Source of the DNA: a virus
Taxonomy: Duplodnaviria > Heunggongvirae > Uroviricota > Caudoviricetes
Length of the DNA: 13,336 nucleotides
Virus record (IMG/VR): IMGVR_UViG_2563366831_000002
Reading direction: 5' to 3' (one strand)
Positions 1 to 13,251 of this stretch are shown one piece after another. A program made the translations under genes and the position numbers. The notes beneath the pieces were generated by a model. That model had not been told where the DNA came from and did no database searches. It saw only the letters and a program-made list of their open reading frames with translations. Within the stretch, counting starts at the first letter, position 1; every line of letters begins with the position of its first letter.

Positions 1-117
1 TCATTTGATGATGCCTCTGTGTGAAATGACGGTAAACGACGCACTTGTGCCGGCACATAATAGCAAGCACCATAATAGATCAGATTCGATTCTTGCTGTA
101 AGTGATAATTATTCTCG

Positions 118-150
118 TTTTTCGGGTCCTTTCCGGCGATCCAACAGGCT
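118..150 (+). promoter_or_regulatory. Right genome end upstream of cosN; expected location of cosQ (packaging termination element)
   Basis: Non-coding sequence immediately 5' of the cosN nick closely resembles the remembered lambda right end (...GGTCCTTTCCGG.GATCC.ACAGG.TACG). Exact cosQ boundaries not determinable from sequence alone. Confidence 0.4.
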
Positions 151-170
151 ACGGGGCGGCGACCTCGCGG
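149..170 (+). other. cosN: cosN cohesive-end site; 12-nt 5' overhang GGGCGGCGACCT at 154-165 (nicks after 153 on top strand and after 165 on bottom strand)
   Basis: Exact match to the lambda cohesive-end sequence GGGCGGCGACCT followed by CGCGGGTTTTCGCTATTTATGAAAATTTTCCGG; located about 190 bp upstream of nu1 as in lambda. Confidence 0.9.
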
Positions 171-204
171 GTTTTCGCTATTTATGAAAATTTTCCGGGG
201 AAAA

Positions 205-213
205 TCATGTCGG
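205..213 (+). repeat. cosB repeat copy 1 (TCATGTCGG), candidate R3-like gpNu1 site
   Basis: Exact 9-mer TCATGTCGG; same orientation as copy 3. Confidence 0.5.
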
Positions 214-265
214 TACTTCTCGAACATAACTATTTGTTTTTTCTAATATCGAATCCGTAAAAGGT

Positions 266-274
266 CCGACATGA
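266..274 (-). repeat. cosB repeat copy 2 (CCGACATGA on top strand, reverse complement of TCATGTCGG), candidate R2-like site
   Basis: Exact inverted copy; extended match TTTTCATGTCGG on the minus strand. Confidence 0.5.
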
Positions 275-305
275 AAACGCCTAAAAAAGTCATTTTCGGG
301 CACTT

Positions 306-314
306 TCATGTCGG
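306..314 (+). repeat. cosB repeat copy 3 (TCATGTCGG), candidate R1-like site
   Basis: Exact 9-mer, extended TTTCATGTCGG; 28 bp upstream of nu1 start. Confidence 0.5.
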
Positions 315-341
315 CCCCTGTATTTATTGTGAGACTGTTTC

Positions 342-861
342 ATGAAGGTTAATAAAAAGAAACTTGCCGAAATTTTCAACGTGGATCCGCGAACGATTGA
401 ACGCTGGCAGTCTCAGGGACTCCCTTGCGTCTCCGGAGGTGGTAAGGGCGTTGAATCTGTATTTGATACCGCCATGGCAATTCAGTGGTATGCGCAGAGG
501 GAAGCTGATATCGAAAATGAAAAACTCCGTAAAGAGGTTGTGGATTACAGGGCTGCCAGTGAGGCAGATCTCCAGCCTGGGACTATTGAGTACGAACGCC
601 ATCGACTTACGCGTGCGCAGGCCGACGCACAGGAGCTGAAGAATGCCAGAGACTCCGCAGAGGTGGTGGAAACCGCATTCTGTACTTTCGTGCTGTCACG
701 GATCGCAGGTGAAATTGCCAGTATTCTTGACGGGATCCCTCTCTCGGTACAGCGGCGTTTTCCGGAACTGGAAAACCGACATGTTGATTTCCTGAAACGG
801 GATATCATCAAAGCCATGAACAAAGCAGCCGCGCTGGATGAACTGATACCGGGGTTGCTGA

Positions 862-887
<26 letters not shown>
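342..887 (+). CDS. nu1: Terminase small subunit (gpNu1), 181 aa; N-terminal about 75 aa divergent from lambda, remainder lambda-like
   Basis: ATG at 342, stop at 885-887; same length as lambda gpNu1. Residues from about [58 protein letters not shown]... onward match remembered lambda gpNu1; first gene after cos. Confidence 0.93.
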
Positions 888-4568
<3,681 letters not shown>

Positions 4569-4588
<20 letters not shown>

Positions 4589-5888
4589 TCTCCCGCATAT
4601 TGCCAGCATGGCCTTTAATGAGCCGCTGATGCTTGAACCCGCCTATGCGCGGGTTTTCTTTTGTGCGCTTGCAGGCCAGCTTGGGATCAGTCGCCTGACG
4701 GATGCAGTATCCGGCGACAGCCTGACTGCCGGAGAGGCACCCGCGGCGCTGGCGTTATCCGGTGATGATGACGGACCACGACAGGCCCGCAGTTATCAGG
4801 TCATGAACGGCATCGCCGTGCTGCCGGTGTCCGGCACGCTGGTCAGCCGGACGCGAGCGCTGCAGCCGTATTCGGGGATGACCGGTTACAACGGCATTAT
4901 CGCCCGTCTGCAACAGGCTGCCAGCGACCCGATGGTGGACGGCATTCTGCTCGATATGGATACGCCAGGCGGGATGGTGGCAGGGGCATTTGACTGCGCT
5001 GACATCATCGCCCGTGTGCGTGACATAAAGCCGGTATGGGCGCTGGCCAACGACATGAACTGCAGTGCAGGTCAGTTGCTTGCCAGCGCCGCCTCCCGAC
5101 GTCTGGTCACGCAGACCGCCCGGACAGGCTCCATCGGCGTCATGATGGCTCACAGTAATTACGGTGCTGCGCTGGAGAAACAGGGCGTGGAAATCACGCT
5201 GATTTACAGCGGCAGCCATAAGGTGGATGGCAACCCCTACAGCCATCTACCGGGTGATGTCCGGGAGACACTGCAGTCCCGGATGGATGCAACCCGCCGG
5301 ATGTTTGCGCAGAAGGTGTCGGCATATACCGGCCTGTCCGTGCAGGCTGTGCTGGATACCGAGGCTGCAGTGTACAGCGGTCAGGAGGCCATTGATGCCG
5401 GACTGGCTGATGAACTTGTCAACAGCACCGATGCGATCACTGTTATGCGTGATGCACTGGATGCACGTAAATCCCGTCTCTCAGGAGGGCGAATGACCAA
5501 AGAGACTCAATCAACAACTGTTTCAGCCACTGCTTCGCAGGCTGACGTTACTGACGTGGTGCAAGCGACGGAGGGCGAAAACGCCAGCGCGGCGCAGCCG
5601 GACGTGAACGCGCAGATCACCGCTGCGGTTGCGGCAGAAAACAGCCGCATTATGGGGATCCTCAACTGTGAGGAAGCTCACGGACGCGAAGAACAGGCAC
5701 GTGTGCTGGCCGAACCCCCCGGTATGACCGTGGAAACGGCCCGCCGCATTCTGGCAGCTGCACCACAGAGTGCACAGGCGCGCAGTGACACTGCGCTGGA
5801 TCGTCTGATGCAGGGGGCACCGGCACCACTGGCTGCAGGTAACCCGGCATCTGATGCCGTTAACGATTTGCTGAACACACCAGTGTAA
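4569..5888 (+). CDS. C: Head maturation protease / scaffold-related protein gpC (ClpP/SppA-like S49 family), 439 aa
   Basis: GTG at 4569 preceded by GGAGGAG (4557-4563); product starts MTAELRNLPHIASMAFNEPLMLEPAYARVFF as lambda gpC; overlaps B 3' end by 20 nt. The ORF-track ATG at 4434 lies inside B and is unlikely to be the real start. Confidence 0.88.
5283..5888 (+). CDS. nu3: Scaffolding protein gpNu3, 201 aa, translated in-frame from an internal start within C
   Basis: In-frame ATG at 5283 (MDATRRMFAQKVSAYTGL...), at the position equivalent to lambda nu3, sharing the C stop codon; Ala/Gln-rich C-terminal region typical of scaffold proteins. Confidence 0.75.
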   Translation: MDATRRMFAQKVSAYTGLSVQAVLDTEAAVYSGQEAIDAGLADELVNSTDAITVMRDALDARKSRLSGGRMTKETQSTTVSATASQADVTDVVQATEGENASAAQPDVNAQITAAVAAENSRIMGILNCEEAHGREEQARVLAEPPGMTVETARRILAAAPQSAQARSDTALDRLMQGAPAPLAAGNPASDAVNDLLNTPV

Positions 5889-5897
5889 GGGATGTTT

Positions 5898-6230
5898 ATG
5901 ACGAGCAAAGAAACCTTTACCCATTACCAGCCGCTGGGCAACAGTGACCCGGCACATACGGCAACCGCGCCCGGCGGATTGAGTGCGAAAGCGCCTGCAA
6001 TGACCCCGCTGATGCTGGACACCTCCACCCGTAAGCTGGTTGCGTGGGATGGCACCACCGACGGTACTGCCGTTGGCATTCTGGCGGTTGATGCTGACCA
6101 GACCAGCACCACGCTGACGTTCTACAAGTCCGGCACGTTCCGTTATGAGGATGTGCTCTGGCCGGAGGCTGCCAGCGACGAGACGAAAAAACGGACCGCG
6201 TTTGCCGGAACGGCAATCAGCATCGTTTAA
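5898..6230 (+). CDS. D: Capsid decoration protein gpD, 110 aa
   Basis: ATG at 5898 with AAGGGA 8 nt upstream; [64 protein letters not shown]... matches lambda gpD. Confidence 0.95.
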
Positions 6231-6240
6231 CCTTACCCTT

Positions 6241-6262
6241 CATCACTAAAGGCCGCCTGTGC
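6241..6262 (+). terminator. GC-rich stem-loop followed by T7 run in D-E intergenic region (terminator-like / mRNA-stabilising hairpin)
   Basis: GGCCGC-CTGT-GCGGC followed by TTTTTTT (6256-6262); same position as the known hairpin between lambda D and E. Confidence 0.6.
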
Positions 6263-6285
6263 GGCTTTTTTTACGGGATTTTTTT

Positions 6286-7311
6286 ATGTCGATGTACACA
6301 ACCGCCCAGCTGCTGGCGGCAAATGAGCAGAAATTTAAGTTTGATCCGCTGTTTCTGCGTCTCTTTTTCCGTGAGAGCTATCCCTTCACCACGGAGAAAG
6401 TCTATCTCTCACAAATTCCGGGACTGGTAAACATGGCGCTGTACGTTTCGCCGATTGTTTCCGGTGAGGTTATCCGTTCCCGTGGCGGCTCCACCTCTGA
6501 ATTTACGCCGGGATATGTCAAACCCAAGCATGAGGTGAATCCGCAGATGACCCTGCGTCGCCTGCCGGATGAAGATCCGCAGAATCTGGCGGACCCGGCT
6601 TACCGCCGCCGTCGCATCATCCTGCAGAACATGCGAGACGAAGAGCTGGCCATTGCTCAGGTCGAAGAGATGCAGGCCGTTTCTGCTGTGCTTAAGGGCA
6701 AATACACCATGACCGGTGAAGCCTTCGATCCGGTTGAGGTGGATATGGGCCGCAGTGCGGCGAACAACATCACACAGTCCGGTGGTACGGAGTGGAGCAA
6801 GCGTGACAAGTCCACGTATGACCCGACCGACGATATCGAAGCCTATGCGCTGAACGCCAGCGGCGTGGTGAATATCATCGTGTTTGATCCGAAAGGCTGG
6901 GCGCTGTTCCGTTCCTTCAAAGCCGTCAAGGAGAAGCTGGATACCCGTCGCGGCTCTCATTCCGAGCTGGAGACAGCGGTAAAAGACCTGGGCGAAGCGG
7001 TGTCCTATAAGGGGATGTATGGCGATACGGCGATCGTCGTGTATTCCGGACAGTACGTGGAAAACGACGTCAAAAAGAACTTCCTGCCGGACAACACGAT
7101 GGTGCTGGGGAACACTCAGGCACGCGGTCTGCGCACCTATGGCTGCATTCAGGATGCGGACGCACAGCGCGAAGGTATTAACGCCTCTGCCCGCTACCCG
7201 AAAAACTGGGTGACCACCGGCGATCCGGCGCGTGAGTTCACCATGATTCAGTCAGCACCGCTGATGCTGCTGGCTGATCCTGATGCGTTCGTGTCCGTAC
7301 AACTGGCGTAA
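6286..7311 (+). CDS. E: Major capsid protein gpE, 341 aa
   Basis: ATG at 6286; MSMYTTAQLLAANEQKFKFDPLFLRLFFRESYPFTTEKVYLSQIPGLVNMALYVSPIV... matches lambda gpE; 341 aa. The ORF-track start at 6259 is an upstream in-frame extension. Confidence 0.95.
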   Translation: MSMYTTAQLLAANEQKFKFDPLFLRLFFRESYPFTTEKVYLSQIPGLVNMALYVSPIVSGEVIRSRGGSTSEFTPGYVKPKHEVNPQMTLRRLPDEDPQNLADPAYRRRRIILQNMRDEELAIAQVEEMQAVSAVLKGKYTMTGEAFDPVEVDMGRSAANNITQSGGTEWSKRDKSTYDPTDDIEAYALNASGVVNIIVFDPKGWALFRSFKAVKEKLDTRRGSHSELETAVKDLGEAVSYKGMYGDTAIVVYSGQYVENDVKKNFLPDNTMVLGNTQARGLRTYGCIQDADAQREGINASARYPKNWVTTGDPAREFTMIQSAPLMLLADPDAFVSVQLA

Positions 7312-7352
7312 TCATGGCCCTTCGGGGCCATTTTCTCTCTGTGGAGGAGTCC

Positions 7353-7748
7353 ATGACGAAAGATGAACTGATTGCCCGTCTTCAGGTGCTGGGTGAGCAA
7401 CTGAACCGTGATGTCAGCCTGACGGGGACGAAAGAAGAACTGGTGCTCCGTGTGGCAGAGCTGGAAGAGGAGCTTGATGACACGGATGACGCTGCCGGTC
7501 AGGACACATCTGTCAGCCCGGAAAATGCGCTGACCGGACATGAAAATGAGGTGGTATCAGCGCAGCCGGATACCGTGATTGATACGGCTGCTCTGGTCAC
7601 GGTCGTGGCACTGGTGACGCTGCATACTGATGCACTTCACGCCACGCGGGATGAGCCTGTGGCATTTGTGCTGCCGGGAACGGCGTTTCGTGTCTCTGCC
7701 GGTGTGGCAGCCGAAATGACAGAACATGGCCTGGCCAGAATGCAATAA
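7353..7748 (+). CDS. FI: DNA packaging accessory protein gpFI, 131 aa
   Basis: ATG at 7353 preceded by GGAGGAG (7343-7349); MTKDELIARLQVLGEQLNRDVSLTGTKEELVLRVAELEEELDD... lambda gpFI-like with acidic linker. Confidence 0.88.
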   Translation: MTKDELIARLQVLGEQLNRDVSLTGTKEELVLRVAELEEELDDTDDAAGQDTSVSPENALTGHENEVVSAQPDTVIDTAALVTVVALVTLHTDALHATRDEPVAFVLPGTAFRVSAGVAAEMTEHGLARMQ

Positions 7749-7759
7749 CGGGAGGCGCT

Positions 7760-8113
7760 GTGGCTGATTCCGATAACCTGTTCGATGCTGCCATTGCCCG
7801 CGCCGATGAAACGATACGCGGGTACATGGGAACGTCAGCCACCATGACATCCGGTGAGCTGTCCGGTGCTGTGATACGTGGTGTTTTTGATGACCCTGAA
7901 AATATCAGCTATGCCGGACAGGGCGTGCGCGTTGAAGGCTCCAGCCCGTCCCTGTTTGTCCGGACTGATGATGTGCGGCAGCTGCGGCGTGGAGACACAC
8001 TGACCATCGGCGAGGAAAACTTCTGGGTGGACCGGATTTCGCCGGATGATGGCGGAAGCTGTCATCTCTGGCTTGGGCGTGGCGTGCCGCCTGCCGTTAA
8101 CCGTCGCCGCTGA
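7760..8113 (+). CDS. FII: Head-tail joining protein gpFII, 117 aa
   Basis: GTG at 7760 after GGGAGG; 117 aa as lambda gpFII; C-terminal ...GGSCHLWLGRGVPPAVNRRR recognisable. Confidence 0.9.
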   Translation: MADSDNLFDAAIARADETIRGYMGTSATMTSGELSGAVIRGVFDDPENISYAGQGVRVEGSSPSLFVRTDDVRQLRRGDTLTIGEENFWVDRISPDDGGSCHLWLGRGVPPAVNRRR

Positions 8114-8124
8114 AAGGGGGATGT

Positions 8125-8703
8125 ATGGCCATAAAAGGTCTTGAGCAGGCCGTTGAAAACCTCAGCCGTATCAGCAAAACGGCGGTGCCTGGTGCCGCCG
8201 CAATGGCCATTAACCGCGTTGCGTCATCCGCGATATCGCAGTCGGCGTCACAGGTTGCCCGTGAGACAAAGGTACGCCGGAAACTGGTAAAGGAAAGGGC
8301 CAGGCTGAAAAGGGCCACGGTCAAAAATCCGCAGGCCAGAATCAGGGTTAACCGGGGGGATTTGCCCGTAATCAAGCTGGGTAACGCGCGGGTTGTCCTT
8401 TCCCGCCGCAGACGTCGTAAAAAGGGGCAGCGTTCATCCCTGAAAGGTGGCGGCAGCGTGCTTGTGGTGGGAAACCGTCGTATTCCCGGCGCGTTTATTC
8501 AGCAACTGAAAAATGGCCGCTGGCATGTCATGCAGCGTGTGGCCGGGAAAAACCGTTACCCCATTGATGTGGTGAAAATCCCGATGGCGGTGCCGCTGAC
8601 CACGGCGTTTAAACAGAATATTGAACGGATACGGCGTGAACGTCTTCCGAAAGAGCTGGGCTATGCGCTGCAGCATCAACTGAGAATGGTAATAAAGCGA
8701 TGA
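8125..8703 (+). CDS. Z: Tail completion protein gpZ, 192 aa
   Basis: ATG at 8125 after AAGGGGGA; position and size equal lambda gpZ; stop overlaps U start (ATGA at 8700-8703). Confidence 0.9.
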   Translation: MAIKGLEQAVENLSRISKTAVPGAAAMAINRVASSAISQSASQVARETKVRRKLVKERARLKRATVKNPQARIRVNRGDLPVIKLGNARVVLSRRRRRKKGQRSSLKGGGSVLVVGNRRIPGAFIQQLKNGRWHVMQRVAGKNRYPIDVVKIPMAVPLTTAFKQNIERIRRERLPKELGYALQHQLRMVIKR

Positions 8704-9095
8704 AACATACTGAACTCCGTGCAGCCGTACTGGATGCACTGGAGAAGCATGACACCGGGGCGACGTTTTTTGATGGTCGCCCCGCTGTTTTTGATGAGGC
8801 GGATTTTCCGGCAGTTGCCGTTTATCTCACCGGCGCTGAATACACGGGCGAAGAGCTGGACAGCGATACATGGCAGGCGGAGCTGCATATTGAAGTTTTC
8901 CTGCCTGCTCAGGTGCCGGATTCAGAGCTGGATGCGTGGATGGAGTCCCGGATTTATCCGGTGATGAGTGATATCCCGGCACTGTCAGATTTGATCACCA
9001 GTATGGTGGCCAGCGGCTATGACTACCGGCGCGACGATGATGCGGGCCTGTGGAGTTCAGCCGATCTGACTTATGTCATTACCTATGAAATGTGA
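8700..9095 (+). CDS. U: Tail terminator protein gpU, 131 aa
   Basis: ATGA overlap with Z; 131 aa, [67 protein letters not shown]... lambda gpU-like. Confidence 0.92.
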
Positions 9096-9102
9096 GGACG
9101 CT

Positions 9103-9843
9103 ATGCCTGTACCAAATCCAGTAATGCCGGTGAAAGGGGCCGGGACCACCCTGTGGGTTTATAAGGGGAACGGTGACCCTTATGCAAACCCGCTTTCAGA
9201 CAATGACTGGTCGCGTCTGGCAAAGGTTAAAGACCTGACGCCCGGCGAACTGACCGCTGAGTCCTATGACGACAGTTATCTCGATGATGAAGATGCGGAC
9301 TGGACTGCGACCGGGCAGGGGCAGAAATCTGCCGGAGATACCAGCTTCACGCTGGCGTGGATGCCCGGAGAGCAGGGGCAGCAGGCGCTGCTGGCGTGGT
9401 TTAATGAAGGGGATACCCGTGCCTATAAAATCCGCTTCCCGAACGGCACGGTCGATGTGTTCCGCGGCTGGGTCAGCAGTATCGGTAAGGCGGTGACGGC
9501 GAAGGACGTGATCACCCGCACGGTGAAAGTCACCAACGTAGGACGTCCGTCGATGGCAGAAGATCGCAGCACGGTAACAGCGGCAACCGGTATGACCGTG
9601 ACGCCAGCCAGCGCTTCCGTAGTGAAAGGGAAGAGCACCACGCTGACCGTGGCATTCCAGCCGGAAGGCGCAACCGACAAGAGCTTCCGTGCGGTGTCAG
9701 CGGATAAAACAAAAGCCACCGTGTCGGTCAGTGGTATGACCATCACCGTGAAAGGCGTTGCTGCAGGTAAGGTCAACATTCCGGTTGTATCCGGTAATGG
9801 TGAACTTGCTGCGGTTGCAGAAATTACCGTCACCGCCAGTTAA
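9103..9843 (+). CDS. V: Major tail tube protein gpV, 246 aa, with C-terminal Ig-like (Big_2-type) domain
   Basis: ATG at 9103 after GAGGA; [64 protein letters not shown]... matches lambda gpV; 246 aa. The ORF-track start at 9073 is an upstream extension. Confidence 0.93.
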
Positions 9844-9858
9844 TCCGGAGAGTCAGAG

Positions 9859-10281
9859 ATGTTCCTGAAAACCGAATCATTTGAACATAACGGTGTGACC
9901 GTCACGCTTTCTGAACTGTCAGCCCTGCAGCGTATTGAGCATCTCGCCCTGATGAAACGGCAGGCAGAACAGGCGGAGTCAGACAGCAACCGGAAGTTTA
10001 CTGTGGAAGACGCCATCAGAACCGGCGCGTTTCTGGTGGCGATGTCCCTGTGGCATAACCATCCGAAGAAGACAAAGCTGCCTTCCATGAATGAAGCCGT
10101 TAAACAGATTGAGCAGGAAGTGCTTACCACCTGGCCCACGGAGGCAATTTCTCATGCTGAAAACGTGGTGTACCGGCTGTCCGGTATGTATGAGTTTGTG
10201 GTGAATGATGCTCCTGAACAGACAGAGGACGCCGGGCCTGCAGAGCCTGTTTCTGCGGGAAAGTGTTCGATGGTGAGCTGA
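9859..10281 (+). CDS. G: Tail assembly chaperone gpG, 140 aa
   Basis: ATG at 9859 after GGAGAG; 140 aa as lambda gpG; contains slippery heptamer near its 3' end. Confidence 0.92.
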   Translation: MFLKTESFEHNGVTVTLSELSALQRIEHLALMKRQAEQAESDSNRKFTVEDAIRTGAFLVAMSLWHNHPKKTKLPSMNEAVKQIEQEVLTTWPTEAISHAENVVYRLSGMYEFVVNDAPEQTEDAGPAEPVSAGKCSMVS

Positions 10282-10697
10282 GTTTCGCCCTGAAACTGGC
10301 GCGTGAGATGGGGCGACCCGACTGGCGTGCCATGCTTGCCGGGATGTCATCCACGGAGTATGCCGACTGGCACCGCTTTTACAGTACCCATTATTTTCAT
10401 GATGTTCTGCTGGATATGCACTTTTCCGGGCTGACGTACACCGTGCTCAGCCTGTTTTTCAGCGATCCGGATATGCATCCGCTGGATTTCAGTCTGCTGA
10501 ACCGGCGTGAGGCTGACGAAGAGCCTGAAGATGATGTGCTGATGCAGAAAGCGGCAGGGCTTGCCGGAGGCGTCCGCTTTGGCCCGGACGGGAATGAAGT
10601 TATCCCCGCTTCCCCGGATGTGGCGGACATGACGGAGGATGACGTAATGCTGATGACAGTATCAGAAGGGATCGCAGGAGGAGTCCGGTATGGCTGA
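9859..10697 (+). CDS. T: Tail assembly chaperone fusion gpGT, produced by -1 frameshift at 10257-10263 (G frame 9859-10262, then T frame 10262/10263-10697)
   Basis: T frame has no plausible independent initiation context and begins exactly at the slippery site; architecture identical to lambda G/GT; T stop 10695-10697 overlaps H start. Confidence 0.85.
10257..10263 (+). promoter_or_regulatory. Programmed -1 ribosomal frameshift slippery heptamer G GGA AAG (G frame)
   Basis: GGGAAAG at 10257-10263, 6 codons before the G stop; the -1 frame opens into the 145-codon T ORF (10263-10697). Confidence 0.85.
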
Positions 10698-13251
10698 ACC
10701 GGTAGGCGATCTGGTCGTTGATTTAAGTCTGGATGCGGCCAGATTTGACGAGCAGATGGCCAGAGTCAGGCGTCATTTTTCCGGTACGGAAACTGATGCG
10801 AAAAAAACAGCGGCAGTCGTTGAACAGTCGCTGAGCCGACAGGCGCTGGCTGCACAGAAAGCGGGGATTTCCGTCGGGCAGTATAAAGCCGCCATGCGTA
10901 TGCTGCCTGCACAGTTCACCGACGTGGCCACGCAGCTTGCAGGCGGGCAAAGCCCGTGGCTGATCCTGCTGCAACAGGGGGGTCAGGTTAAGGACTCCTT
11001 CGGCGGGATGATCCCCATGTTCAGGGGGCTTGCCGGTGCGATCACCCTGCCGATGGTCGGGGCCACCTCGCTGGCGGTGGCGACCGGTGCGCTGGCGTAT
11101 GCCTGGTATCAGGGCAACTCAACCCTGTCCGATTTCAACAAAACGCTGGTCCTTTCCGGTAATCAGTCGGGTCTGACGGCAGATCGTATGCTGGTCCTGT
11201 CCAGAGCCGGGCAGGCGGCAGGGCTGACGTTTAACCAGACCAGCGAGTCACTCAGTGCACTGGTTAAGGCGGGGGTAAGCGGTGAGGCTCAGATTGCGTC
11301 CATCAGCCAGAGTGTGGCGCGTTTCTCCTCTGCATCCGGCGTGGAGGTGGACAAGGTCGCTGAAGCCTTCGGGAAGCTGACCACAGACCCGACGTCGGGG
11401 CTGACGGCGATGGCACGCCAGTTCCATAACGTGACGGCGGAGCAGATTGCGTATGTTGCTCAGTTGCAGCGTTCCGGCGATGAAGCCGGGGCATTGCAGG
11501 CGGCGAACGAGGCCGCAACGAAAGGGTTTGATGACCAGACCCGCCGCCTGAAAGAGAACATGGGCACGCTGGAGACCTGGGCAGACAGGACTGCGCGGGC
11601 ATTCAAATCCATGTGGGATGCGGTGCTGGATATTGGTCGTCCTGATACCGCGCAGGAGATGCTGATTAAGGCAGAGGCTGCGTTTAAGAAAGCAGACGAC
11701 ATCTGGAATCTGCGCAAGGATGATTATTTTGTTAACGATGAAGCGCGGGCGCGTTACTGGGATGATCGTGAAAAGGCCCGTCTTGCGCTTGAAGCCGCCC
11801 GAAAGAAGGCTGAGCAGCAGACTCAACAGGACAAAAATGCGCAGCAGCAGAGCGATACCGAAGCGTCACGGCTGAAATATACCGAAGAGGCGCAGAAGGC
11901 TTACGAACGGCTGCAGACGCCGCTGGAGAAATATACCGCCCGTCAGGAAGAACTGAACAAGGCACTGAAAGACGGGAAAATCCTGCAGGCGGATTACAAC
12001 ACGCTGATGGCGGCGGCGAAAAAGGATTATGAAGCGACGCTGAAAAAGCCGAAACAGTCCGGCGTGAAGGTGTCTGCGGGCGATCGTCAGGAAGACAGTG
12101 CTCATGCTGCCCTGCTGACGCTTCAGGCTGAACTCCGGACGCTGGAGAAGCATGCCGGAGCGAATGAGAAAATCAGCCAGCAGCGCCGGGATTTGTGGAA
12201 GGCGGAGAGCCAGTTTGCGGTACTGGAGGAGGCGGCGCAACGTCGCCAGCTGTCTGCACAGGAGAAATCCCTGCTGGCGCATAAAGATGAGACGCTGGAG
12301 TACAAACGCCAGCTGGCTGCACTTGGCGACAAGGTTACGTATCAGGAGCGCCTGAACGCGCTGGCGCAGCAGGCGGATAAATTCGCACAGCAGCAACGGG
12401 CAAAACGGGCCGCCATTGATGCGAAAAGCCGGGGGCTGACTGACCGGCAGGCAGAACGGGAAGCCACGGAACAGCGCCTGAAGGAACAGTATGGCGATAA
12501 TCCGCTGGCGCTGAATAACGTCATGTCAGAGCAGAAAAAGACCTGGGCGGCTGAAGACCAGCTTCGCGGGAGCTGGATGGCAGGCCTGAAGTCCGGCTGG
12601 AGTGAGTGGGAAGAGAGCGCCACGGACAGTATGTCGCAGGTAAAAAGTGCAGCCACGCAGACCTTTGATGGTATTGCACAGAATATGGCGGCGATGCTGA
12701 CCGGCAGTGAGCAGAACTGGCGCAGCTTCACCCGTTCCGTGCTGTCCATGATGACAGAAATTCTGCTTAAGCAGGCAATGGTGGGGATTGTCGGGAGTAT
12801 CGGCAGCGCCATTGGCGGGGCTGTTGGTGGCGGCGCATCCGCGTCAGGCGGTACAGCCATTCAGGCCGCTGCGGCGAAATTCCATTTTGCAACCGGAGGA
12901 TTTACGGGAACCGGCGGCAAATATGAGCCAGCGGGGATTGTTCACCGTGGTGAATTTGTCTTCACGAAGGAGGCAACCAGCCGGATTGGCGTGGGGAATC
13001 TTTACCGGCTGATGCGCGGCTATGCCACCGGCGGTTATGTCGGTACACCGGGCAGCATGGCAGACAGCCGGTCGCAGGCGTCCGGGACGTTTGAGCAGAA
13101 TAACCATGTGGTGATTAACAACGACGGCACGAACGGTCAGATAGGTCCGGCTGCTCTGAAGGCGGTGTATGACATGGCCCGCAAGGGTGCCCGTGATGAA
13201 ATTCAGACACAGATGCGTGATGGTGGCCTGTTCTCCGGAGGTGGACGATGA
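10690..13251 (+). CDS. H: Tail tape measure protein gpH, 853 aa
   Basis: ATG at 10690 after AGGAGG; 853 aa as lambda gpH; long Ala/Gln/Glu/Lys-rich predicted coiled-coil middle, Gly-rich hydrophobic C-terminal segment; immediately follows G/GT as in all siphoviruses. Confidence 0.95.
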   Translation: MAEPVGDLVVDLSLDAARFDEQMARVRRHFSGTETDAKKTAAVVEQSLSRQALAAQKAGISVGQYKAAMRMLPAQFTDVATQLAGGQSPWLILLQQGGQVKDSFGGMIPMFRGLAGAITLPMVGATSLAVATGALAYAWYQGNSTLSDFNKTLVLSGNQSGLTADRMLVLSRAGQAAGLTFNQTSESLSALVKAGVSGEAQIASISQSVARFSSASGVEVDKVAEAFGKLTTDPTSGLTAMARQFHNVTAEQIAYVAQLQRSGDEAGALQAANEAATKGFDDQTRRLKENMGTLETWADRTARAFKSMWDAVLDIGRPDTAQEMLIKAEAAFKKADDIWNLRKDDYFVNDEARARYWDDREKARLALEAARKKAEQQTQQDKNAQQQSDTEASRLKYTEEAQKAYERLQTPLEKYTARQEELNKALKDGKILQADYNTLMAAAKKDYEATLKKPKQSGVKVSAGDRQEDSAHAALLTLQAELRTLEKHAGANEKISQQRRDLWKAESQFAVLEEAAQRRQLSAQEKSLLAHKDETLEYKRQLAALGDKVTYQERLNALAQQADKFAQQQRAKRAAIDAKSRGLTDRQAEREATEQRLKEQYGDNPLALNNVMSEQKKTWAAEDQLRGSWMAGLKSGWSEWEESATDSMSQVKSAATQTFDGIAQNMAAMLTGSEQNWRSFTRSVLSMMTEILLKQAMVGIVGSIGSAIGGAVGGGASASGGTAIQAAAAKFHFATGGFTGTGGKYEPAGIVHRGEFVFTKEATSRIGVGNLYRLMRGYATGGYVGTPGSMADSRSQASGTFEQNNHVVINNDGTNGQIGPAALKAVYDMARKGARDEIQTQMRDGGLFSGGGR

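Follow-up and report, generated by a model that had tools for sequence, protein, structure and literature searches.

A probable natural hybrid of phage 21-type and lambda-type packaging sequences at the cos end of a lambda-like Escherichia coli prophage

The packaging locus at the left end of the 13,336-nucleotide stretch of viral DNA analysed here (hereafter the window) is, with a probability of roughly 90%, a natural lambda/21 hybrid, in which cosB (R3-I1-R2-R1) and the first 64–73 codons of the terminase small subunit (TerS) belong to the specificity family of phage 21 while the rest is lambda-type. As a whole, the window very probably represents the arm of a lambda-like E. coli prophage that reaches from cos to the tail genes. 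It has the organization of the left arm of a lambda-like genome (cos, nu1, A, then W, B, C, D, E, FI, FII, Z, U, V, G, T and H), and every gene from nu1 to H is open. The 12-nt cohesive end GGGCGGCGACCT lies at 154–165, such that window position 154 corresponds to lambda bp 1, and it is followed by nu1 (terS; 342–887, + strand, 181 aa) and by A (terL; 862–2787, + strand, 641 aa), which overlaps the end of nu1, the gene context of a lambda-like TerS. The TerS protein scored 299.5 bits against Phage_Nu1 (PF07471; cutoff 30) over profile positions 1–164 of 164, and its per-domain identities mark it as chimeric. TerL carries the Pfam domains GpA_ATPase and GpA_nuclease and is lambda-type, with 633 of 641 residues as in lambda gpA and 8 differing. 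It does not resemble phage 21 gp2 at the N-terminus, and its first 60 residues are lambda-like except for residues 8–14.

Extent and boundaries of the mosaic block

A first-pass annotation of the sequence had described the first ~75 residues of TerS as only partly conserved relative to lambda gpNu1, and the protein from about residue 76 as essentially identical to it. Alignment agreed on both counts, with 43 of 73 residues identical over residues 1–73 (58.9%) and 106 of 108 over residues 74–181 (98.1%), where the only differences from lambda are at positions 131 (I/L) and 181 (D/G). The translation quoted there for the open reading frame at 342–887 was exact, and the lambda gpNu1 sequence given for comparison was the real one. 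The sliding-identity comparison with lambda that had been proposed as a check revealed breakpoints, and identity was not uniform across cosB and nu1. Per 100 nt, DNA identity to lambda was 88% at 101–200, 54–59% at 201–500, 76% at 501–600 and 94–100% from 601 to the end, and background divergence from lambda was ~2.2% over the other 12.7 kb. The divergence had been placed at 342–570; its presence within nu1 stood, but its confinement to that gene did not, as the block starts at 199 and includes all of cosB. The non-lambda block thus extends from 199, 45 bp to the right of the cosN nick, to ~560, covering the entire cosB and the winged-helix DNA-binding domain.

We then located the edges of the block from informative sites, defined as positions where lambda and phage 21 differ, using a three-way alignment and a two-breakpoint search. 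Within 199–533, 116 of 130 informative sites were 21-like, whereas 191 of 204 were lambda-like in the flanks (150–198 and 536–1003; Fisher’s exact p ~1e-57, block 199–533 vs. flanks). The left edge is sharp at 198/199 (lambda bp 45/46), just before R3, and the right edge falls at codons ~65–73, where the DNA-binding domain of known structure ends (PDB 1J9I, residues 1–68).

Fast or positively selected change of lambda nu1 in place, with no recombination, would account for the bare difference of the N-terminus from lambda, but for no more than that. Divergence jumps from ~2% to ~43% at sharp edges, including in non-coding cosB and at synonymous sites, and the block matches an independent lineage, namely phage 21 at 87% and, at 96–99.7%, a Logan contig (L012) and a satellite (L013), both described below. 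Divergence in place is refuted by these abrupt breakpoints together with the occurrence of the donor-type allele in other backgrounds, and we give it practically no weight relative to the hybrid reading.

To the left of the block, the DNA upstream of cos (4–149, + strand; the right chromosome end) is 21-type, with 66 of 68 informative sites matching the phage 21 record M81255 and not lambda. An R4/cosQ-region box (CGGGTCCTTTCC, 123–134, + strand) is identical in the window, phage 21, lambda and the phage isolate IdasGreatGrand (PP925829). The DNA at 4–149 also occurs in phage PhiR47_2, which continues with a lambda-type cosB. Between this segment and the block, 154–198 (+ strand), which holds the right part of cosN (the cohesive end at 154–165) and I2 (183–197), is lambda-type and matches lambda bp 1–45 at 45 of 45 positions; sites 171, 177, 195 and 197 are all lambda-type, and both phage 21 records agree with each other at these four. 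Because 4–149 is 21-type and 154–198 is lambda-type, there must be an extra boundary at ~144–170, separate from that at 198/199, and the pattern of informative sites therefore implies at least three mosaic boundaries: ~144–170, 198/199 and a zone at 520–560. A single crossover with everything to the left of the junction derived from phage 21 was ruled out by the four lambda-type sites in 154–198.

The junction zone (520–560, + strand) had identities of 58.5% to lambda, 61% to phage 21 and 63% to the satellite allele. The zone encodes 14 residues, forms the last 27–40 nt of the block (~520/534–560, residues ~60–73), is shared only with IdasGreatGrand and contig L012, and adjoins a 10-residue stretch that is conserved family-wide. 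Residues ~60–73 come neither from lambda nor from 21, so one additional parent at least, or an extra exchange, was involved. Of the two lineages joined here, either may be the recombinant.

Beyond the main block, the densest cluster of differences from lambda is a patch at 883–901 (+ strand), with 7 substitutions in 19 nt inside the nu1/A overlap. At the protein level it results in Nu1 G181D and in IDILRRV at gpA residues 8–14, where lambda has VNRLRHF; outside the patch, gpA has 3 further differences in 641 residues. Residues 8–14 of gpA fall in the N-terminal, TerS-binding part of TerL (PMC9026076). A search for the source of the patch among sequenced phages returned IdasGreatGrand as the sole carrier and no donor. 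Further along the arm, the head genes (900–8100) are lambda-type only, with ~40–79% identity to phage 21 per 100 nt, while the tail genes Z to H (8100–13000) are 96–100% identical both to lambda and to phage 21, and thus a lambda/21 head–tail mosaic boundary lies near 8100.

Packaging sites and recognition helix

Also proposed at the outset was an exchange of the DNA-binding domain along with its cognate cosB through a recombination junction within nu1, and this is what the alignments bear out, as R3-I1-R2-R1 and the recognition helix switch type together. The 21-type cosB (199–341, + strand) is 52% identical to that of lambda and 80% identical to that of phage 21. Binding sites for gp1 and IHF were mapped from M81255 and OL657228 via alignment. 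Positions of R3 (203–218, AATCATGTCGGTACTT), the IHF site I1 (225–239, reverse complement AAACAAATAGTTA) and R1 (304–319, TTTCATGTCGGCCCCT) were transferred from the annotated sites, and R2 (261–276, inverted, AAGGTCCGACATGAAA) is identical to the site in 21. A repeat finder recovered the R boxes independently, and with no prior, as direct and inverted repeats. R3, R2 and R1 all hold the 21 core CATGTCGG in place of the CGTTTCC of lambda, with order and orientation unchanged, and the layout R3-I1-R2(inverted)-R1 is kept as in phage 21. No indel between cosN and R3 was present in a four-way alignment, which matters because the spacing of cosN and cosB is critical (PMC9026076).

On the protein side, the N-terminus of TerS matched the DNA-binding domains in PDB by phmmer, with 6HN7_B (lambda residues 1–98, E = 4e-41), 7LWR (54 aa, identical to 21 gp1 residues 1–54 as aligned, E = 2e-28) and 1J9I (lambda 1–68, E = 8e-23) recovered, in keeping with the earlier assignment of this region as the DNA-binding domain. 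The recognition helix (11 residues) is identical to that of phage 21, where lambda has IRTIQNWQEQG. Discrimination between lambda and 21 is determined by R3 bp 56 and 59 and by TerS residues 20 and 24 (PMC4669245). At these positions the window has G/G, E20 and S24, as does 21, in contrast to T, C, Q20 and E24 in lambda. Features expected of lambda specificity did not appear, with no lambda-type R box in the window and a helix of the 21 type. By every criterion that sequence makes available, the locus would be placed in the 21 specificity class.

A cassette of the 21 family by descent could nevertheless have a packaging specificity of its own, differing from those of both 21 and lambda. The DNA-binding domain differs from that of 21 at 8 of 68 residues, with the differences concentrated in the wing (residues 30–37; CASKGSKGIE in 21), and cosB is only 80% identical to cosB-21, the R boxes differing at their edges: the base in R3 corresponding to lambda bp 54 is A in the window and G in 21, and R1 ends in GCCCCT in the window and GGCCTT in 21. 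Phage N15 illustrates that specificity can vary between related TerS/R3 pairs (PMC4669245). The differences from 21 in the wing, R3 and R1 therefore leave room for a shifted sub-specificity, but the identical recognition helix, the 8-bp R core, residues 20/24 and bp 56/59, all of which are 21-type, and the conserved Lys35 of the wing make a separate specificity improbable, and 21-type specificity is the reading we retain.

The wing sequence (window 427–450, TerS residues 29–37) is CVSGGGKGV, with the GGGKG of lambda, compared to CASKGSKGI in 21, and four lambda-like informative sites (430, 435, 436 and 441) are clustered within it. This wing is common to the satellite allele and contig L012, so it is a property of the allele family and not a private change.

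From this arrangement we infer how the hybrid terminase would operate. All parts that have to mate with the other packaging components are lambda-type: the TerS core, responsible for oligomerisation, the C-terminus that binds TerL, the TerL protein and the head genes. The C-terminus would keep the lambda-type TerL over cosN, the site of the staggered nicks. The phage would as a result fill its lambda-type heads with DNA bearing cosB-21-type sites and would not package cosB-lambda DNA. Homologous recombination at short conserved stretches is the most likely origin of the chimera; the left exchange site would be the conserved cosN/I2 DNA, and the right one the conserved stretch coding for the 10 residues that link the DNA-binding domain to the core helix.

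Source, prevalence and reassortment of the cassette

Database searches support a phage-21-type lineage as the likely source of the cassette. A search with the N-terminal residues alone had been suggested as a way to identify the donor, and tblastn with residues 1–73 returned phage 21 and its relatives, with 86.3% amino acid identity to 21 gp1 compared to 58.9% for lambda-type phages. At the nucleotide level, 199–560 was 87.6% identical to phage 21 (blastn), and the same allele was found in other E. coli elements at 96–99.7%. Phage 21 itself was ruled out as the donor, given its ~87% identity vs. 96–99.7% in those other elements. The short Logan contig from ERR2538163 (L012, only 3.2 kb) encodes at 1252–2048 a TerS (P0112) that is identical to the window type to ~residue 102 and has an unrelated C-terminal part thereafter. 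Upstream of it lies the same cos region (95.9% identity over window 97–679), and a DUF2971 gene on the opposite strand takes the place of terL after it.

Prevalence was assessed in 5,426 complete E. coli genomes, requiring one match covering at least 80% of the query. The chimera (window 150–900) was present in 540 of the 5,426 genomes, the equivalent segment of phage 21 in 632 and that of lambda in 3,910. Pure lambda or 21 loci were ruled out as contributors to the 540, since each covers only about half of the query. Several genomes were 100% identical over 150–900, and the cluster of TerS proteins at 90% identity had 837 members, named ‘MULTISPECIES: terminase small subunit’ by NCBI (P0001). 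One of the prophages with 100% identity over 150–900, in NZ_AP022105 (L008, NZ_AP022105.1), adjoins ydfA-ydfD/dicB and has an overall identity of 97.2% to the window. It has genes for a ‘sce7726 family’ and a ‘beta family protein’ between its lysis genes and cos, which are absent from the window, as the blastn match starts at window 123.

The same chimera, at 98–99% identity, is carried by IdasGreatGrand, a phage recovered as an isolate. It shares 180 of 181 TerS residues and has 99.2% DNA identity over 199–560, and it differs in TerS by V67E only, but its DNA upstream of cos is unrelated. In its record (PP925829.1, 2280–2423; L002), the first part of terL is annotated separately, as a ‘hypothetical protein’ of 144 nt, and an internal codon serves as the start of terL, a split that is probably an annotation artefact.

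These occurrences bear on whether the chimera is a working terminase or a dead product of a decaying prophage, or even an assembly artefact. The NZ_AP022105 prophage, 100% identical in cos–nu1, carries annotated frameshifts in portal, protease, Z and H, which speaks for a dead product. The morphogenetic ORFs of the window are, however, all open, the same chimera is carried by a phage isolate and by the 540 complete genomes, and its laboratory equivalent, hy51 (see below), is viable; we therefore regard a dead product as highly improbable. The intact reading frames, the presence of the same gene in IdasGreatGrand, its abundance in E. coli and the viability of hy51 suggest instead that the natural chimera would be functional.

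Alignment of database relatives revealed that the TerS family is built of three exchangeable parts: the DNA-binding domain (residues 1 to ~64, 21-type in the window), a central helix (residues ~65–101) and the TerL-binding part (residue ~102 to the end), separated by two 10-residue stretches that are conserved across the family. The lambda-type C-terminus occurs with at least four other types of recognition helix (IRTIQNWQEQG, VRTITGWQSQG, VRTITTWQSQG and an Enterobacter variant). The window-type DNA-binding domain is in turn joined to three C-terminal parts, that of the lambda type (P0001) and those of P0112 and P0120, with the junction near residue 102 in P0112 and near residue 64 in P0120, where a 21-like central part follows. 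This pattern is that of recombination at short linkers and supports the view that TerS is routinely reassorted at the two conserved linkers. The window is one ordinary outcome of such linker recombination, and the first-pass description of a classic lambdoid mosaic boundary was apt, the boundary being of a common and well-understood kind.

Known hybrids, satellites and the meaning of the cassette

The hybrid combines features of both parental types. It resembles phage 21 (OL657228, M81255; 7LWR) in the helix, the core CATGTCGG, the R3-I1-R2(inverted)-R1 order and the cosN–R3 spacing, but differs from it in the wing, in the central and C-terminal parts of TerS (~50% identical) and in TerL and the head genes (~60% DNA identity). 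It is similar to lambda in residues 74–181 (98%), in the order of the genes, in the way nu1 overlaps A and in cosN, whereas the DNA-binding domain (59%), the helix (IRTIQNWQEQG in lambda) and the R boxes (CGTTTCC-type in lambda) differ.

Its laboratory counterpart is the hybrid lambda-21 hy51 (Frackman, Siegele & Feiss 1985), which is viable, has 21 packaging specificity and serves as the standard 21-specific helper (PMC4669245, PMC9026076). It contains cosB-21, a small-subunit gene with its 5′ part from gene 1 and its 3′ part from Nu1, and the TerL and heads of lambda (PMC4669245, PMC9026076). The same architecture was found in the window, which has a 21-type cosB and 5′ part of the gene, a lambda-type 3′ part and a cognate TerL N-terminus of the lambda type. 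The two differ in that hy51 is a laboratory construct derived from phage 21 itself and has ~600 bp of 21 DNA at its left end, while in the window the donor allele is ~87% identical to 21, the 21-like stretch ends near codon 64, a stretch of 27–40 nt comes from a third source and the cosN-proximal 45 bp are lambda-type. Our literature search returned no paper with an explicit description of the natural chimera seen here, and statements on function therefore rest on the hybrid papers from the Feiss laboratory (PMC4669245, PMC9026076). TerS chimeras also occur in P22-like phages (cited in PMC4669245, PMC9026076), but the TerS of these phages belongs to an unrelated family and serves pac/headful packaging and not cos.

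The same cassette was observed in a PICI-like island of ~9.7 kb between cspD and clpS (L013, 1588–11127 in JAMXWO010000006.1, GCA_024125605.1), and the cspD/clpS island is also present in four other loci (L009, L010, L011 and L014). The island encodes, in order, an integrase, AlpA, a D5-type primase, SSB, a lambda-E-like capsid protein and a D-like decoration protein, followed by cos and TerS P0120, a 194-aa Nu1-family protein. No TerL or portal gene was found in the ~9.7 kb. Its cos site is full, with a 21-type cosB, and the DNA of its cosN, cosB and DNA-binding domain is 96% identical to window 199–519, after which the sequence becomes 21-like, with the change falling at the same linker. Given this near-identity, one specificity cassette is common to a helper-type prophage and a PICI-like satellite. 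That the cassette is mobile between lambda-like helper prophages and PICI-like satellites, with its replacement reflecting conflict over packaging, is an idea we put forward only tentatively and consider rather doubtful.

Escape from the PICI protein Rpp has been mapped to changes in the TerS of lambda and phage 80 at V3, Y50, A55, E65, D68, L69 and R70, including E65K, D68G, L69R and R70P (PMC6739421). The window lineage has V67 and Y69 (L69 in lambda and 21), both in the junction zone, and among the relatives examined Y69 was found only in this lineage. The location of V67 and Y69 next to or at Rpp-escape positions is suggestive only of a possible link to Rpp escape.

Taken as a whole, the chimera is of an already known kind, common in E. 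coli and present in sequenced phages and genomes, and it reproduces a laboratory hybrid studied since 1985. No new mechanism is indicated, and its distinguishing features (a diverged 21 allele, a lambda-like wing, a third-source stretch and the 883–901 patch) leave its kind unchanged. Packaging specificity in cos phages lies with a small cassette of cosB and the TerS DNA-binding domain, which can be replaced separately and leaves the fit among TerS, TerL and portal intact. The window is a clean natural case of this principle. For annotators, this means that the prophage looks like lambda in head and tail, yet should be neither packaged by lambda terminase nor a substrate for it. Cross-reaction is instead expected with elements of the 21 type, perhaps also with satellites that have the same cosB.
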